From NCBI GenBank assembly GCA_021831785.1, contig JAKBMB010000025.1, positions 2,377-66,376 on the forward strand: a DNA stretch of 64,000 bases, in the 5' to 3' direction. Shown here piece by piece: positions 2,265 to 26,319 of this stretch (position 1 is the stretch's first letter; every line of letters begins with the position of its first letter). The stretch is from Deltaproteobacteria bacterium. Lineage in GTDB: Bacteria; Desulfobacterota; Binatia; Binatales; Binataceae. The notes beneath the pieces were generated by a model. That model saw nothing but the letters and a program-made list of their open reading frames with translations, had not been told where the DNA came from and did not search any database. Both the position numbers and the translations under genes were made by a program.

Positions 2265-2684
2265 TCATCGCTCCGCCGGCGCTTCGCGAAGGCGTCCGTT
2301 TGACTCCATCAGGGGACAGAGTTGGTGGTCGGTCCGGGCTGCCGGCCGTTTGCGCACCAATGTGCGCAGTTGGTGGGCAAGCGCTTCGAGCTCACGAATC
2401 CTGCGATCGACGTCTTCGAGACGACGGCGGGCAAGTTCCTGCACGCGACGGCACGGCTGCTCGCCCCGGCCGGCAAGCTGGAGCAATTCCTTTATCTCCG
2501 CGAGCGTCATGCCGAATGCCTGGGCCCGCTGTATAAAGTTCAACCGCCCGAGCGCGTCTTTGCTATAGACGCGATAGCCGTTGGGAAGGCGAGAGGGACG
2601 TGGCAGGATGTGATGGCTTTCGTAATAGCGAATCGTAGAGGCTCGAAGACCCGCCTCTCGCGCAACTTTGCCAATCGTCAACAT
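2265..2684 (-). CDS. MerR-family heavy-metal-responsive regulator
   Basis: LTIGKVAREAGLRASTIRYYE HTH, NGYRVY, FIQRAQAFGMTLAEIKELL, Cys at start of the dimer helix (QPC) and C-terminal LCPL. Confidence 0.92.
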   Translation of the reverse strand: MLTIGKVAREAGLRASTIRYYESHHILPRPSRLPNGYRVYSKDALGRLNFIQRAQAFGMTLAEIKELLQLAGRGEQPCRRVQELARRRLEDVDRRIRELEALAHQLRTLVRKRPAARTDHQLCPLMESNGRLREAPAER

Positions 2685-2829
2685 GGCTCGCACCTATGCA
2701 AAATCTCAATTTATGTGCCCACCACACCTTACCTGGACAGCGCTGAACCACGAAAGTTCGCTGTCGAGTAATAAACCGGACGTATGAGAGCGGGACGGTC
2801 CGGCACACGGACCGTCCCGCCTCGGCCTG

Positions 2830-2976
2830 TCAGCCGACTTTCTTCATTTCCTTTCCGCAACAGCATCGGGGGGCGTATGTGCCGCGGCAGCCGGGGTCGG
2901 CGCCCTTGGTCACCTCGATTGCACAGCCGCAGTTCGGATCCGGACACTCATATTTTTCCCCTTTTACTAATGGCAT
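2830..2976 (-). CDS. Small Cys-rich metallothionein-like protein, 48 aa (not in ORF track)
   Basis: Hand translation MPLVKGEKYECPDPNCGCAIEVTKGADPGCRGTYAPRCCCGKEMKKVG; 7 Cys; strong SD AAGGAGGTG 7 nt before ATG; pattern C-x4-CxC...CxCG resembles mycobacterial MymT. Confidence 0.8.
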   Translation of the reverse strand: MPLVKGEKYECPDPNCGCAIEVTKGADPGCRGTYAPRCCCGKEMKKVG

Positions 2977-3027
2977 GTCGATTCACCTCCTTGGAATCAC
3001 GTTGCCGGTGTCAATTTTCGTCAGGTC

Positions 3028-3636
3028 TCAAAAGCCCATTACCAGCGGCAGCACGTAGGCCACGCTGAAGCCCGCAAGCCAGATCGCCGCCGAGCACCAC
3101 ACTGCGACGCGGCTGAGCCTGCTCACTGTGTTACAGGCGCTCAGGCCGTCGATCCCGCAGGTCACGCCCCGCGCGCGCAATCGCGGCGCGACGCCGTAGA
3201 CGTAGACGAGGTTGCCTAAAATGAGCGCGCCCGCAAGCGCAAAGACCAGCTTTTTGTGATGTGAAAGCGCCACCAGCCAAGAGACGTTCGAGACCAATGG
3301 CGCCCAAGTTGCTCCGAGCCCGAGCATCACGAGCGCCAGCGGGAGCGCGCAGCACAGAATCGTTCCGAGCGAAGTGAAAAGCGCCGGCACCGATAGCGAG
3401 ACCTGCAGATCGGGCGTGATTCCGTATGCCAGCATGGTGCGGAACATGCTCCCGGAGCCCGCTCCGCCTCCCGTTCCCATAAAGCTCGTATCGAGGCTCC
3501 ATCCGTCTTCAACGTTGGTCGGCGTGCTAAGTCCGAACACCGGACCATGGCCGTTGGCCAAGGCCGCGCGAGGCCCCATGAGCAGCACGCACAATCCAAC
3601 AAGAAACGCCGTCTGGTCCGCTCTTCTAGTTGTCAT
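3028..3636 (-). CDS. MerT/MerF-like metal transport membrane protein with an unrelated signal-peptide-bearing N-terminus (possible chimera)
   Basis: C-terminal half has LFTSLGTILCCALP, 3-4 hydrophobic segments and a C-x7-C loop; N-terminal half has a signal peptide then NGHGPVFGLSTPTN; ATG at 3636 preferred over the ORF-track start. Confidence 0.65.
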   Translation of the reverse strand: MTTRRADQTAFLVGLCVLLMGPRAALANGHGPVFGLSTPTNVEDGWSLDTSFMGTGGGAGSGSMFRTMLAYGITPDLQVSLSVPALFTSLGTILCCALPLALVMLGLGATWAPLVSNVSWLVALSHHKKLVFALAGALILGNLVYVYGVAPRLRARGVTCGIDGLSACNTVSRLSRVAVWCSAAIWLAGFSVAYVLPLVMGF

Positions 3637-3659
3637 CGGCGCCGGCGCTGCGCGGCATC

Positions 3660-3953
3660 CTAAAGCCGCAACCACCAAAGCAGGGCAACCATCGCGGTTG
3701 ACCACCACACAATCCACTTCGACCAGCGCGGCCCGTGGCCACGCCACGCGCTCAGATAGAGAGCGCGCAACATGAACCCGATCGAGGCGCCGAGCAGGAC
3801 GTACTGCGGCCATCCGGCGAGCCATCGCCACGCCGCCATCGCAAACCCCGCTAGCCCGAGCAGGGAAAGCATCGCCGGCAGAATTCAGCGCCACGGCAGC
3901 GCAGCCGCCACGGCGCCGAGACCGAGATCTGCGATGTCCCTGAGCCCGCCCAT
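3660..3953 (-). CDS. Small MerT-like membrane protein with in-frame TGA at codon 23 (selenoprotein or pseudogene)
   Basis: MGGLRDIADLGLGAVAAALPWR*ILPAMLSLLGLAGF...; TGA at 3887-3885 is in frame with ORF 3660..3872 and falls where MerT-type proteins carry the CC-x-LP motif. Confidence 0.6.
3846..3865 (-). promoter_or_regulatory. Candidate bacterial SECIS hairpin
   Basis: CCCUGCU-CGGGCU-AGCGGGG, 7-bp stem starting 19 nt after the UGA, with G at the second loop position. Confidence 0.4.
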
Positions 3954-3959
3954 GCAGCG

Positions 3960-3991
3960 AGCCTAGACCTTGAACCTAGGTTTAAGGTCAA
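3960..3991 (-). promoter_or_regulatory. MerR-type promoter/operator
   Basis: TTGACC-20 nt-TAGGCT with near-perfect 22-bp palindrome ACCTTAAACCTAGGTTCAAGGT (3967-3988) in the over-long spacer. Confidence 0.85.
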
Positions 3992-4393
3992 CACCGCACG
4001 GACCGCTCTGCGCGCTGCGCTATTTCGCAATGAGCGGCCTATCGCCGGCCTTTGAGCGAGCGCCACTCGCCGAACCGCCGCCCGCCCGGCCGCTCCGTCA
4101 GGTGACCCTCCGTTAGCAAAAGCCGGTCGAAGGCCGCCTCCTTGTCCCGTTGGCATGAGGGGCGCTCATTGCAGACAACAACAGCTCGCCGCAGCCGCCG
4201 GGCGCCTTGCGCGTGCCGGATTGCCGAGGGAAAGCATTGCGCGGGCGACGATCGCCGGTTGCCTTCAGAGCCGTTAGAGGTTAAGGCGCCTTTGCATTTG
4301 GAGGCGACATCATTTAGTCTGGCTATGCGTAAAGGGCCGTTAGGTTTCAAAACGTTGTGGAAAAAAAATGACACAAGGGCGCGGATTTCGAAC

Positions 4394-4858
4394 ATGAAAG
4401 AACGAGCCTGGGTTAGCGTGGTTTGGCGCGGGATGGGCGCGATCGCCGTCGTCGCCTGTGTGCATGGGAAAGCGTGGGCGCTCCAATCGCGTGGCTGCGT
4501 GACGATTGCGGATTGCCGGGTGGCGGCATTTAGCGCCCCTGAGGGTCGCAAACCGCCGGCGTTGCAGCGTATAGCTCAGGCCCAGCCGGGGGGTCTTTTA
4601 TCTGGGCACGTGACCCAACCGGCGCAGTCCGGCGCGATCGAAGTTGGATCGCAGCCTCGTGAGGGCCTTCTCGCAGGCGCGCCCAACGCCGCAACCAGCG
4701 CGGCCGAGGTGCAAAGCCAGGTTGTCCCCGAGCCGGGCCAGCCGCCACGCGGCCTGTTGGCCGGCGCGATCAGAGGAAATGAAGCCGCGCCTGGAGGAAC
4801 GGGCGTTGCTGCGCCGTCCGGCCGCGGCCTGCTAGCAGGCGCGATCAGGGGAAATTAA
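4394..4858 (+). CDS. Hypothetical exported protein with repeated GLLAG motif
   Basis: Signal-peptide-like N-terminus ending AWA; GGLLSG, EGLLAGA and RGLLAGAIRGN x2. Confidence 0.45.
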   Translation: MKERAWVSVVWRGMGAIAVVACVHGKAWALQSRGCVTIADCRVAAFSAPEGRKPPALQRIAQAQPGGLLSGHVTQPAQSGAIEVGSQPREGLLAGAPNAATSAAEVQSQVVPEPGQPPRGLLAGAIRGNEAAPGGTGVAAPSGRGLLAGAIRGN

Positions 4859-23253: not shown

Positions 23254-26200
23254 TCAAGCCCTCTCGACGTTGACCAGAAAAGCCTTGGTTTCCGGCGTCT
23301 GAGTGTTGGCATCACCAACACAAGGAGTCAGCACGTTAGCCGGGAAGCCCTTGCGAGTAAGCCCGGTGAAACCCCAGTGGATGGGGATGCCGACGTGTTG
23401 GATCACCTTGCCGTTGACCGTCAGGGGTTTGATGCGCTTGGTCACCACCGCCACTGCTCTAATCCGTCCGCGCGCGCTGGTGACGATGATCTCGCCCCCG
23501 TTGACGATGCCTTTTTCCGCCGCCAATTGCTCGGAGATCTCGACGAACTGCTGCGGCTGCAAAATAGCGTTGATCAGGCAATGCTTGCTCCAGTAATGGA
23601 ACAACTCGGTGAGGCGATAAGTCGTGCCCACGTACGGGAACTCCGAACTGTTCCCAAGTTCGCTGTGGTCGTCCTTGTAAACGCGCGCCACCGGGTTGGT
23701 GACCACCTTAGGATGAATCGGATTAGTGCCAAGCGGCGTCTCAAACGGCTCGTAATGCTCGGGGAACGGGCCGTCCTTGACGAAGGCACGGCTAAACAGG
23801 CGACCCACGCCCTCGGGATGCATGATAAAGGGTCCCATGTCCTTGCTGGGCGCGGCGGTAGGAACGTAGTCGGGCACGTCAAGCCCGACCCACTTCGTGC
23901 CGTTCCAATGGATTAGCGGGCGGTTAGGGTCCCACGGCTTGCCGTTAGCGTCGCAGGAGGCGCGATTATACAGGATTCGCCGGTTGGCCGGCCACGAGAA
24001 AGCCCACCCCGGCACCAAGCCGCGGTCCCCCGGGTCATGGGTCTCGCGTCGCGCCATCTGGTTGCCCTTCTCGGTCCAGCAGCCGCTGTAAATCCAGCAT
24101 CCGCAGGCGGTGCTGCCGTCGTCGCGAAGCTGGGCGAAAGTCGCGAGCTGCTGACCTGCCTTGACCAGCACCTTGGTCGGATCCTGCGGGTCCTTTACGT
24201 CCGTGATGGCGTAGCCGTTAAGTTCCCGCGCCAGCTCAGCCGGCATGGGCCGTTCTGGGATCAGATAAGGCCAGTGCAAATTCAGAATCGGCTCGGGAAA
24301 GACGCCGCCTTCCTTGCGATAAAGCTCGCGTATCCGCAAAAACAGCGCCGCTATGATGTCAATGTCGGTGCGCGCTTCGTCCGGCGGGTCTTGGCCCCGA
24401 TAGTGCCATTGTAGCCAGCGCGAACTATTGGTCAGCGAGCCCTCGTCCTCGGCAAAACAGATGCTGGGCAGGCGAAAGACCTCGGTCATTATCTTGGAGC
24501 TGTCCGCGGGATTGTATTCGCCGTGGTTCTCAAAAAACGCCGAGGTTTCCGTAGCCAAGGGATCGATGACGACCAGAAATTTGAGCTTGCCGAGCCCGGC
24601 CAGCGTTTTGGCCTTGTTGGGCGAGGCTTGCAGCGGGTTGAAGCCCTGGCAAATGTAGCCGTTCATCTTGCCCTGGACCATCAAATCTTGCACCCGCAGC
24701 ATGTCGTATTCGTGGTCCACCCGGTCAAGCTTCGGCAGCCACCCATAACCGTAATCGTTCTCTTTGGTAGCGGCCGGTCCGTACAGCACCTTCATCAGAC
24801 TGACGAAGAACTTTGGGTAATTAGACCAGTAATTGAGCTGCCCTGGCCGTAGCGGCTTGGGCGTCCGTTTGGCCAAGTAAGTCGCCAGATTGGGCTCGGC
24901 GGCGGCCGGCAGAGTCAGATACCCCGGCATCAGATTACTCAGCAGCCCCAGGTCGGTGAGACCTTGAATATTGGAATGGCCGCGCAGCGCGTTAAGTCCC
25001 CCGCCGGACATGCCGACATTGCCCAGCAGGAGCTGGATTATAGCCATGCAGCGGATGTTTTGCGTCCCCACGCTGTGGTTGGTCCAGCCCAGTGCGTACA
25101 GGCTGGTCATCGTACGGTTGAGGGCGGCGGTGGAGGCGATTAGCTTACACACCTCAAGGAACTTGTCCTTCGGCGAGCCAGTGACGTTTACCACTACCTC
25201 CGGCGTATAACGGGAGTAGTGCTGCTTCATTAGCTGGAAGACGCAGCGCGGATGCTGCAAGGTCTCGTCCACTTGGACGTAGCCGTCCGGCCCGAGCTCG
25301 TAGTCCCACGTGCTGTGGTCGTATTCGCGTTTGTCGGAGTCGTAGCCGCTAAACAGCCCCTCGGAGAAGCCGAATCCGTCCTTGACGATAAAGGAGGCGT
25401 TGGTGAAGGCTTTGACGTATTCGTGCTGGATGGCGTCCTTGGTCAGCAGGTAGTTGATCACGCCGCCTAGGAACGCGATGTCGGTGCCGGCCCGAAGCGG
25501 CACGTAAACGTCCGCCACCGCCGCGGTTCGGTTGAAGCGCGGGTCAACGACGATGAGTGTCGCCTTGTTGCGCGCCTTGGCTTCAATCACCCACTTGAAG
25601 CCGACCGGATGTGCCTCGGCGGTGTTTCCGCCCATCACCAAGATAACGTTCGCGTTCTTGATGTCGATCCAGTTATTGGTCATCGCGCCACGGCCGAATG
25701 ATGGGGCCAAACTGGCCACCGTTGGGCCGTGTCAGACGCGTGCCTGATTGTCAAACCCTAGGATGCCTAGGCTGCGAACCGTCTTGAAGGTGAGGAAACC
25801 CGCCTCGTTGGTCGAAGCCGATGCCGCGAGCATGCCCGTGGTCAGCCATCGATTAACGTCTTCGCCCTGTGCATTTTTAGCCACGAAATTGCGGTCGCGG
25901 TCTTCCTTCATCAGATGCGCGATGCGGTCGGTCGCCCAGTCCCATGACACGCGCTTGAAGCCGCTCTCGCCCGGCGCTCGATATTGAGGATAGAGCAGCC
26001 GGCTCGGGCTGTGGACGAAATCAAGAAGTCCCGCGCCCTTCGGGCACAGACTGCCGCGGCTCACGGGATGGTCCGCGTCGCCCTCGATGTGCATAATCGA
26101 GGCGCGATTGTTCTGGGCGCGGTCGCCAAGACTGTACATGATCACGCCGCAAGCAACCGCGCAGTAAGGGCACGTGTTTCTGACCTCGGTCGTGCGTGAA

Positions 26201-26319
26201 AGCTTGAATTCACGCACCTCGGCCACGGCCTCGGCAGCGGGAAACCCCAAGGCCGCCATGCTGGAGCCTGCCAGAGCTGCCCCGCTCAACTTAAAGAATT
26301 GGCGCCGGCTCAATTCCAT
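23254..26319 (-). CDS. fdoG: Formate dehydrogenase-O/N alpha subunit, selenocysteine-containing (1021 aa, split in the ORF track)
   Basis: Tat signal SRRQFFK, CPYCAVAC...LCPKG; in-frame TGA at 25734-25732 in DNQARV-U-HGPTVASLAPSFGRGAMTN joins ORFs 25732..26319 and 23254..25719. Confidence 0.96.
25703..25720 (-). promoter_or_regulatory. SECIS element of fdoG
   Basis: UGA-CACGGCCCAAC (11 nt)-GGUGGCCAGUUUGGCCCC, same geometry as the E. coli fdhF/fdnG SECIS. Confidence 0.85.

Follow-up and report, generated by a model that had tools for sequence, protein, structure and literature searches.

The locus lies on the minus strand of the window, by which we mean the whole stretch of DNA that was analysed (64,000 nucleotides). 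It comprises a short membrane-protein gene with an in-frame TGA, its promoter and a few neighbours, as follows:

3660..3953, minus strand: coding sequence of a MerT-like membrane selenoprotein, as predicted (P0001); 97 sense codons, TAG stop included
3885..3887, minus strand: TGA, codon 23, proposed to encode selenocysteine (Sec); aligned with the second Cys of the family motif LPWCC
3888..3890, minus strand: codon 22, CGC (Arg), at the family position of the first Cys of the pair
3835..3875, minus strand: putative SECIS, a two-tier stem-loop inside the coding sequence
3960..3991, minus strand: MerR-type promoter/operator; -35 TTGACC (3991-3986), 20-nt spacer, -10 TAGGCT (3965-3960)
3028..3636, minus strand: next gene (202 aa), in which an in-frame deletion has fused a barrel N-terminus to a second MerT-like protein
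2830..2976, minus strand: open reading frame for a 48-residue protein with 8 Cys; weak match to MymT (E 0.17)
2265..2693, minus strand: MerR-family metal-responsive regulator, 142 aa (Pfam MerR_1, MerR-DNA-bind, MerR)

The gene, its promoter and its neighbours

The frame of P0001 runs from ATG (3953-3951) to TAG (3662-3660), and another TAG (3965-3963) lies in frame shortly upstream of the start. A single in-frame TGA occupies codon 23 (3887-3885), in the context LPWR-U-ILPAMLSLLG. An ATG behind a MerR promoter, a 97-codon frame and one TGA were what the initial annotation of this DNA had proposed, and all of it was found, on the minus strand. Three helices (5-43, 49-71 and 76-96) are predicted in an AlphaFold model of low confidence (mean pLDDT 69.8, pTM 0.33). 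There is no Cys after residue 23; the loop has a conserved H-G instead. Gene callers make a shorter protein of this frame: the database entry is a 70-residue product that begins past the TGA, and a word-indexed protein search returned this shortened product of the window gene and nothing else. Public runs with DNA of the window are labelled mine-drainage and sediment; among the public runs listed, no RNA run contains the locus.

Promoters of the MerR type have an over-long spacer, of 19-20 nt, that holds a dyad. Here an inverted repeat of 12+12 nt (3989-3966) is 92 % complementary, and the promoter layout and its conserved bases are common to the window and to two relatives, G012 and L155, that we describe below. 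A standard sigma-70 scan, which allows a spacer of 16-18 nt, does not call a promoter at 3960-3991. The -10 element ends 6 nt 5' of the ATG, from which we infer that the mRNA is leaderless or nearly so. To judge from sequence, the MerR-family protein at 2265-2693 is likely the regulator of this promoter; against the NCBIfam models for MerR, ZntR, CadR and CueR it scores 87-108 bits, below all the cut-offs. P0001 would be expressed from a metal-sensing promoter of this type.

The neighbours of P0001 are the barrel/MerT-like fusion, the Cys-rich peptide and the merR-family gene. Neither merP nor merA is adjacent to it, the two merA genes of the genome being both on contig C13. The 48-residue protein with eight Cys is a possible cytoplasmic metal-binding partner, akin to a metallothionein.

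A conserved TGA followed by a conserved hairpin

Six more loci, belonging to four phyla, have a TGA in the column of codon 23. G012 is from a different genus of the same taxonomic family; it is 50 % identical and has the sequence LPWC-U-IAP. Among 60 relatives searched there was no other match, and the gene is rare in its own taxonomic family (one of 36 other genomes searched). A metagenome contig, L155, 87 % identical to G012 in its DNA, shares the TGA. The four other loci come from Blastocatellia (L178), Latescibacterota (L179), Acidobacteria (L180) and Gemmatimonas (L181), each with the TGA and with a full-length frame that is open on either side of it. These four were found with a DNA pattern that required the TGA together with some bases of the hairpin codons, and part of their invariance is ascertainment; the window, G012 and L155 were discovered independently of the hairpin. 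A looser degenerate DNA pattern for TGA forms matched at least 120 stretches, and a tblastn screen of the stretches listed found no family member among them.

Some 40 homologues have Cys at this column, within the motif LPWCC, and PWCC is found in all five Cys-form loci for which DNA was at hand. A homologue search in 1.84 billion sequences gave 59 matches at E<=1e-3, whose full-length representatives are nearly all PWCC. Of these matches, seven, including the product of the window gene itself, begin just past the U column, which is the pattern to be expected of miscalled Sec genes. In the tree, four of these seven late-start proteins group with proven Sec forms. An alignment of P0040 and P0055 yielded just two matches, of 20-24 residues, which we regard as spurious.

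Between the window and G012, codons 10-22, which precede the TGA, show pS 0.68 and pN 0.26; between G012 and L155, the overall values are dN 0.04 and dS 0.16. On these comparisons purifying selection acts on the codons that precede the TGA, and translation probably runs on past it. The initial annotation had raised the possibility of a sequencing error. This is rejected, because contigs of two runs from two studies (X1 and X5, at depths of 33.5 and 49), independently assembled, are identical to the window, TGA included, and because the changes listed in a third run, X9, which holds a strain about 95 % identical, spare the TGA. Its retention in that strain is deduced from the differences listed, 17 weaker ones having been left out. 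The TGA at 3887-3885 is not an assembly error.

The genome is equipped to decode such a codon. A tRNA-Sec gene (selC) is present, and selA (582 bits), selB (378 bits) and selD (383 bits) all score above their cut-offs, the full set of genes that had initially been presumed from the use of Sec in a formate dehydrogenase. The latter proposal is sound as well: the gene for the alpha subunit (FDH-alpha) lies in the window and contains a single TGA, at 25734, flanked as in ARV-U-HGPT; it is, like that of SelD, a gene with an in-frame TGA at a classical Sec site. As for the other genomes with Sec forms, selA is above its cut-off in four out of five, the fifth having a fragment at a contig end.

Bacterial SECIS elements are stem-loops located shortly downstream of the UGA, with a G in the apical loop. 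In the window, the lower stem of the putative element pairs 3875-3869 with 3842-3835; after an internal loop, an upper stem of 7 bp (3865-3859 with 3852-3846) carries the apical loop CGGGCU (3858-3853). The hairpin CCCUGCU/AGCGGGG with its G-containing loop, described at the outset as beginning 19 nt after the TGA, is this upper part (CCCUGCU / CGGGCU / AGCGGGG, 3865-3846), the top of a longer stem-loop spanning 3875-3835. The consensus hairpin has 13 bp in two tiers, with CGGGCU, CGGGUU or CGGACU as the apical loop of Sec forms, starting 26 nt after the UGA.

The 13 consensus pairs are formed in 94.5 % of cells, a value reached by 6 of 500 shuffles, while no slid control exceeds 62.6 % of paired cells; the covariation score, 0.271, was reached by 8 of 500 shuffles. 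Pair 17-49 is U-A in four sequences and C-G in three. Covariation is weak and is located in the lower stem. The upper stem is nearly invariant and has no double-sided compensation, its only changes being switches between G-U and A-U and, in L181, the loss of one pair. The seven Sec forms do not differ at all in columns 23-32. Codons 29-36, which make the hairpin, show 1.0 synonymous difference over 8.7 sites between the window and G012 (pS 0.12), as against 0.62 downstream, and the two changes of the X9 strain within the hairpin, at 3863 and 3849, are synonymous and leave the pairing intact. At the same site, a covariance model gives the Cys forms 10.7-19.6 bits against 54.6-79.1 bits for the Sec forms used in its training; the latter scores are high by construction, and the information resides only in the low scores of the Cys forms. 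The folding energy tells us little. Its z-scores (-2.1, -1.6 and -1.6) are unremarkable for G+C-rich DNA, and relatives of the Cys form fold as strongly as the window hairpin. A search of Rfam with 3500-4100 found no family, only a chance match to isrO (E 7.4). It is via comparison with relatives, and not via folding energy, that the predicted hairpin is shown to be better than chance. The check on homologues proposed in the initial annotation came out in favour of its reading: they have either Cys or TGA at the column, and the TGA forms keep the hairpin.

In terms of sequence, then, the TGA at 3887-3885 almost certainly encodes selenocysteine. It would be decoded by the SelB/tRNA-Sec system, under the direction of the stem-loop that lies in the coding sequence at about 3875-3835 and that presumably binds SelB.

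An unannotated family related to short MerT proteins

Proteins of the family have about 95-110 residues and share the motifs LPWC[C/U][IV]xP[AG], GRAHYL and HG.R.SR..W.ST. The majority have a vicinal Cys-Cys pair in the first membrane helix and a minority, in at least four phyla, has Cys-Sec. The pair is C-C or C-U in the family, R-U in the window and C-U in the sister strain of run X9. Databases name these proteins 'hypothetical protein' at most, or hold products shortened to 53-77 residues.

The initial annotation had called the protein MerT-like. This stands as distant homology: 29 of 46 family members match NF033560 (merT_RC607) over the whole length of the model, with a best E of 1.1e-11, the relatives scoring 22.9-42.5 bits, far below a cut-off of 130. 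The window protein, in contrast, matches no model, either in Pfam or in NCBIfam, at E<=1. PF02411 is matched by two of the 46 members (best E 0.011). A search of PDB sequences with the family profile gave chance matches only (E 0.52 and 7.7). Queried with a natural homologue of the Cys form, an atlas leads toward MerT clusters, which we record as a lead only. As judged from these profiles, the LPWC[C/U] family is an unannotated, distant relative of short MerT.

The Tn21/Tn501 MerT proteins have a second Cys pair, in a cytoplasmic loop. P0001 is devoid of it. With canonical MerT (PF02411; NF010314, 116 positions; NF033560, 97 positions) the family shares its size (some 100 residues), the presence of three membrane helices, an x-x-Pro sequence after the vicinal pair of helix 1 (a pair that is R-U in the window) and a MerR-type promoter; yet the profile similarity, although full-length, is weak, and it is to the 97-residue RC607 type. 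The neighbours also differ: HMA proteins, NHL propellers and MetA-like barrels in this family, merP and merA beside canonical MerT.

Selenoproteins for mercuric transport had been predicted before, as the initial annotation rightly stated. Selenoproteins of the MerT family in which Sec follows Cys (CU) have already been mentioned in a preprint by Haft and a co-author, with WP_250634603.1 as an example (bioRxiv 10.1101/2022.07.06.499078). As far as that description goes, they resemble the present family in being MerT-related membrane proteins with Sec after Cys, presumably at a metal site in helix 1, and in being shortened in databases unless specially annotated. The comparison is by description only; the family of P0001 lies far below all the MerT cut-offs. 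A more canonical short MerT with CU, found in G364 (L142:1486-1773), scores 42.5 bits against merT_RC607. The Zhang/Gladyshev catalogues include a 'putative mercuric transport protein' selenoprotein, which a 2026 review (PMC13188914) gives under PF02411, with motif C/SxxU and example ABB16073.1, and which appears also in PMC1976440 and PMC2398784. Like P0001, this entry is a computationally predicted Sec protein of mercury or metal transport. As described there, however, its motif is a spaced pair, whereas in the present family C and U are adjacent within helix 1 (R and U in the window). P0001 does not match PF02411. Likewise, NF045683 (MerT/CopZ fusion-like heavy metal transport selenoprotein; 235 positions, cut-off 375 bits) describes a selenoprotein with a MerT-type membrane part. 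P0001 does not match it; its G012 orthologue reaches 13.9 bits, and seven of 46 members match weakly (best E 1.1e-5). Nothing exceeds the cut-off of this model in 401 genomes of the phylum, and in its top matches the TGA is an ordinary stop separating merT from a merP-like gene. With its 97 residues, P0001 lacks the fused CopZ/HMA domain of NF045683, HMA being a separate gene in the relatives.

Indeed, the loci of relatives have HMA proteins (in six), NHL propellers (in seven), MetA-like barrels (in two) and regulators of the MerR or CsoR type (in three). At the G012 locus, HMA and NHL genes go together with a putative barrel open reading frame without Pfam match. Elsewhere than in the window, the family gene is part of a conserved cassette, alongside genes for a periplasmic protein with an HMA domain, for an NHL propeller and for a MetA-like barrel of the outer membrane. 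The thiol/selenol pair of helix 1 may bind an ion of a soft metal such as Hg, Cu(I), Ag or Cd and may pass it across the inner membrane. We are quite confident in describing P0001 as a predicted 97-residue inner-membrane selenoprotein with three helices, a putative member of a MerT-like metal-carrier family, in which a stem-loop would direct Sec insertion.

The Arg-Sec allele and competing explanations

In the strain of the window the cassette is altered, with an Arg-Sec pair and with the barrel gene fused to a second MerT-like gene. Both oddities had been entered as caveats in the initial annotation, and both are real. In the X9 strain codon 22 is TGC, giving Cys-Sec, where the window has CGC (place 3890, G>A on the + strand), and Arg22 is a recent replacement of Cys. 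The next gene begins with a signal peptide and about 60 N-terminal residues of an outer-membrane barrel of MetA-like type, a half that matches the barrel part of P0017 (PF13557) at E 2e-6. Beyond a junction at codons Ala-Leu (3384-3379) it continues as a second MerT-like protein, of CCALP type, for which MerT matches are weak. In G019 these halves belong to two distinct genes with 1287 nt between them, and the X9 contig has about 1315 nt extra at 3380/3381. The fusion at 3028-3636 was made by an in-frame deletion of about 1.3 kb.

It might be that a true selenoprotein family is at hand of which this strain is losing its copy, the product being no working metal carrier. This overlaps with Sec decoding as we explain it and differs on function only. 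Arg stands where every other Sec form, and almost every Cys form, has Cys, a strain as close as ~95 % identity keeping it; the deletion left little of the barrel, took away the HMA-type gene and cut off the beginning of the second MerT-like gene; and in 97 codons the two strains differ by seven non-synonymous against five synonymous changes. Yet four of these seven replacements fall in the N-terminal tail, which varies across the family, and the frame, start codon, promoter dyad, TGA and hairpin are all intact. The deletion itself is in frame and leaves the signal peptide and the three helices of the second MerT-like protein, and the allele, recovered at depths of 33.5-49 in runs of two studies, is that of an established lineage. 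We consider such decay rather unlikely, while giving it a substantial share of our belief. From the Arg-Sec pair and the deletion of about 1.3 kb we conclude that the copy of the window is probably still translated past the TGA, and that it may be functionally weakened.

Far less probable is a plain nonsense mutation, with a TGA that terminates translation and a dead gene. It would fit the behaviour of gene callers, which yield just the 70-residue product past the TGA, and the other damage at the locus. It would leave us at a loss to explain a TGA at the identical column in six loci of four phyla with frames intact on both sides, the purifying selection upstream, the conserved hairpin and the presence of the Sec machinery. 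Just as improbable is the synthesis of two products, a 22-residue leader ending at the TGA and a 70-residue protein starting at the ATG of codon 28, with the hairpin acting in regulation or coupling rather than as a SECIS. The window does have that ATG, five codons past the TGA, and folding energy alone is no proof of a SECIS; nonetheless G012, L155 and L178-L181 have no ATG at that position, the Cys forms are one protein, the first helix spans the TGA, and the 70-residue form would be without half of helix 1 and without the conserved LPWC motif. That TGA stands for another amino acid, by a deviant code or general read-through, is scarcely credible, since ordinary genes, both here and among relatives, terminate with TGA (those of the G012 and L155 homologues, for example) and since the other in-frame TGAs found are where SelD and FDH-alpha classically have Sec.

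Sec decoding at the TGA being the reading that we prefer, a broader one can be put forward, tentatively and with chances that we place somewhat below even. The LPWC-U proteins would be the first description of a distinct selenoprotein family, with Sec in helix 1 and a distribution over four phyla or more (Binatia, Acidobacteriota, Latescibacterota, Gemmatimonadota), systematically truncated by gene callers and encoded in a conserved, uncharacterised metal cassette under MerR/CsoR control. The natural Arg-Sec allele would then mean that a lone selenol can replace the vicinal pair.

Several consequences follow for annotation and for biology. A model recognising LPWC-U together with the hairpin would repair database calls that are now shortened or hypothetical. 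Sec in the membrane helix of a transporter is rare, a handful of Sec transport proteins being named in those portions of the literature cited above. A family that interchanges Cys and Sec, with a very well conserved in-frame SECIS, would be useful for bSECIS models outside Proteobacteria and Firmicutes. Finally, the LPWC[C/U] gene marks a conserved, uncharacterised metal-handling cassette, and its natural Arg-Sec and Cys-Sec alleles would allow comparison of what the partner thiol contributes.

A probable recoded codon in a small membrane-protein gene

The gene lies on the minus strand, and three features define it:

3991-3986 (-35, TTGACC) and 3965-3960 (-10, TAGGCT), minus: MerR-type promoter with a 20-nt spacer, directly 5' of the gene
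3953 (ATG) to 3662-3660 (TAG), minus: putative selenoprotein coding sequence, 97 sense codons
3887-3885, minus: TGA, codon 23, preceded by CGC at codon 22

The promoter spacer carries a 12+12 nt dyad of 92 % complementarity; being long, it explains why a scan for ordinary sigma-70 promoters gave no call here. The -10 hexamer ends only 6 nt before the ATG, which makes a leaderless or almost leaderless mRNA probable. An in-frame TAG (3965-3963) precedes the ATG, and there is no obvious Shine-Dalgarno sequence between 3953 and 3965; in G012, a genome of the same family but a different genus, the gap is 10 nt and includes GAGG. Read through with TGA as selenocysteine (Sec, U), the product is hydrophobic, and three helices (5-43, 49-71 and 76-96) are predicted in a structural model of the 97-residue protein, P0001 (mean pLDDT 69.8, pTM 0.33).

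Searched in six frames, 60 relatives yielded a single homologue, that of G012, which is 50 % identical, has TGA at the same column and reads LPWC-U-IAPAALSLLGLAG. The same TGA is present in a metagenome contig, L155, whose DNA is 87 % identical to that of G012. A DNA pattern for TGA forms, requiring P-W-x-TGA plus the letters, at amino-acid level, of the motif that comes next, matched five stretches in the genomes of 185,579 species. One is G012's own contig; the others belong to metagenome-assembled genomes labelled Blastocatellia, Acidobacteria, Latescibacterota and Gemmatimonas, and all four are full-length family members with the frame open on either side of the TGA.

The family is small: only 59 proteins reached E<=1e-3 in an exhaustive profile search covering 1.84 billion representatives. 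Nearly all full-length members have LPWCC[IV]xP, and the five Cys-form loci for which DNA is available all have PWCC. Among the 59, seven, the window's own product included, start just past the U column, which is what a gene caller makes of a Sec gene; four of these seven group with proven Sec forms in a maximum-likelihood tree (supports 91/89, 87/76 and 99/80). The tree intermixes Sec and Cys forms, the window protein itself joining the Cys forms P0006 and P0008 (95/86). Some relatives are built differently: P0017 (365 aa) is the family domain fused to a following MetA-like barrel, while P0018 (191 aa) has an N-terminal extension of about 100 residues with Cys motifs ahead of the domain. A family gene may have left a remnant at locus L154 (G041:C1:994234-994314), where a short stretch reads LPWCCIVPAIL and the sequence after it is unrelated.

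When the window is compared with G012, an overall pS of 0.58 shows saturation at synonymous sites. Upstream of the TGA, at codons 10-22, pN is 0.26 against a pS of 0.68, and G012 and L155 differ by a dN of 0.04 against a dS of 0.16. Such constraint argues that the 22 N-terminal codons are translated in frame with the remainder of the gene.

Downstream hairpin and selenocysteine machinery

The hairpin that the initial annotation had placed behind the TGA is present (3865-3846), as the top of a two-tier stem-loop (3875-3835, minus). Its folding energy is unremarkable (z-scores -2.1, -1.6 and -1.6); the folds of Cys forms are just as strong. The comparative signal, as read from aligned sequences, is clear. 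Across the hairpin (codons 29-36) synonymous differences amount to only 1.0 in 8.7 sites (pS 0.12), against a pS of 0.62 further downstream. Columns 23-32 do not vary among the seven Sec forms, in four of which the DNA pattern had itself fixed some hairpin bases; the window, G012 and L155 were discovered independently of the hairpin. In the consensus structure of 13 pairs, 94.5 % of cells pair, a value reached by 6 of 500 shuffles, while slid registers pair at most 62.6 %; the covariation score, 0.271, is reached by 8 of 500. In the lower stem, pair 17-49 is split between U-A (four sequences) and C-G (three); in the upper stem changes are one-sided only. A covariance model gives the same site in Cys forms 10.7-19.6 bits, versus 54.6-79.1 bits for its own training sequences. 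No Rfam family matches the hairpin.

The organism's own genome has a tRNA-Sec, and its selA, selB and selD all exceed their cut-offs. SelD is itself a selenoprotein (CKAAG-U-AGK; G000:C4:205303-206229, plus), beside selB at C4:203223-205115; a hairpin lies a few nucleotides 3' of its TGA. The window also encodes a formate dehydrogenase alpha subunit (23260-26313, minus; TIGR01553, 1518 bits) with one in-frame TGA, 25734-25732, at the classical site ARV-U-HGPT; a two-tier hairpin follows this TGA too. Among the other Sec-form genomes selA exceeds the cut-off in four of five, the fifth having a contig-end fragment, and it does so in four of five Cys-form genomes as well, so that its presence is not discriminating. 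Taken on sequence evidence, the TGA at 3887-3885 very probably encodes Sec, and the gene appears to be a real, conserved Sec-encoding member of an unannotated MerT-like family.

State of the local copy

Contigs from two sequencing runs of separate studies (X1 and X5, labelled mine drainage and sediment; depths 33.5 and 49) are identical to the window over 3000-4100, and may include its own source. A run from a third study, X9, holds a strain about 95 % identical. We infer that this strain keeps the TGA, since none of the differences listed touches it (17 weaker rows lie outside those listed). Its changes at 3863 and 3849, both synonymous, lie in the upper stem and turn C-G into U-G and U-G into U-A. 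At codon 22, Arg stands in place of the first Cys of the pair; because the X9 strain (TGC, at 3890) and all other Sec forms have Cys there, Arg22 is a derived state of recent origin.

The gene that comes next is a chimera: residues 27-86 resemble the beginning of P0017's barrel part (E 2e-6), and a second MerT-like protein, of the CCALP type, makes up the C-terminal part. The genes that follow the selenoprotein gene are:

3636-3028, minus: barrel/MerT-like fusion, 202 residues
2976-2830, minus: Cys-rich protein, 48 residues, 8 Cys
2693-2265, minus: MerR-family regulator

In G019, a relative's genome, each half has a gene of its own (73 % and 57 % identity), and the 1287 nt that separate them hold an HMA-type gene; the X9 contig has about 1315 nt extra at 3380/3381; and the fusion junction, Ala-Leu codons 3384-3379, is in frame. 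It follows that a deletion of about 1.3 kb has cost the window strain the greater part of the barrel, the gene in between and the beginning of the second MerT-like gene, and that it joins the barrel's signal peptide and first strands to the second MerT-like protein. The Ala-Leu codons are common to both parental genes, which suggests a microhomology-mediated event. The local allele and its operon are damaged. That the Arg-Sec copy is in functional decay would fit Arg22 and the fusion; we consider it less likely than not.

Relation to MerT and predicted role

P0001 matches no Pfam or NCBIfam model, and members, where named at all by their sources, are called 'hypothetical protein'. Matches among 46 members were:

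NF033560 merT_RC607 (97 positions): 29 members, over the whole length; best E 1.1e-11, 22.9-42.5 bits, cut-off 130
MerTP_fusion (NCBIfam): 18 members, weak
NF045683 (MerT/CopZ selenoprotein): 7 members, weak

With scores so far under the cut-off, the family is a distant relative of MerT, not a member. Atlas look-alikes of one Cys-form member include MerT clusters, a lead in the same direction. The two share size, three helices and, in helix 1, a vicinal pair with x-x-Pro behind it, which in the family is Cys-Cys or Cys-Sec and in the window protein Arg-Sec; the family differs in having no later Cys, with conserved His instead (RAHY, H-G). The basic loop joining helices 2 and 3 would, on the positive-inside rule, face the cytoplasm, as it does in MerT.

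Selenoproteins of MerT type are a known kind: prokaryotic catalogues list a 'putative mercuric transport protein' (PF02411, motif C/SxxU, example ABB16073.1, in PMC13188914; also PMC1976440, PMC2398784), and NCBIfam NF045683 models a MerT/CopZ-fusion selenoprotein. The LPWC-U family falls outside the PF02411 and NF045683 models, and a term search of the 2026 review (PMC13188914) turned up no short LPWC-U family. MerT-family selenoproteins with a Cys-Sec (CU) motif, with WP_250634603.1 as the example, are mentioned by Haft and a co-author (bioRxiv 10.1101/2022.07.06.499078), and the LPWC-U family may be identical with that group. A more canonical short MerT in genome G364 (L142:1486-1773, plus; 42.5 bits to merT_RC607) carries an in-frame TGA within its helix-1 pair (AFC-U-QLP), followed by its own, different hairpin, and is probably one of the literature's MerT-family Cys-Sec selenoproteins.

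As to the metal, the regulator at 2693-2265 scores alike against MerR, ZntR, CadR and CueR models, always under the cut-offs. Two merA genes about 3 kb apart on another contig (G000:C13:13971-15377, minus, and C13:18281-19669, plus), both over the curated cut-off, suggest a separate mer locus. A 238-aa frame (4142-4858, plus) runs divergently from the promoter region and contains the motif GLLAGA.(I/P)RGN three times in its C-terminal half. Beside family genes of relatives, in Sec and Cys forms alike, lie:

6 loci: HMA-domain proteins
7 loci: NHL-repeat propellers
2 loci: MetA-like outer-membrane barrels
3 loci: MerR-family or CsoR-type regulators

This cassette (an HMA-domain protein of about 175 aa, an NHL-repeat propeller, sometimes a MetA-like barrel, a MerR or CsoR-type regulator) recurs across phyla (L178, L179, L180, L181, L015, L016, L018, L019 and L014); G012 has in succession a putative barrel frame, without Pfam match, and HMA and NHL genes. 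Such neighbours point to a family that handles a soft metal across the envelope.
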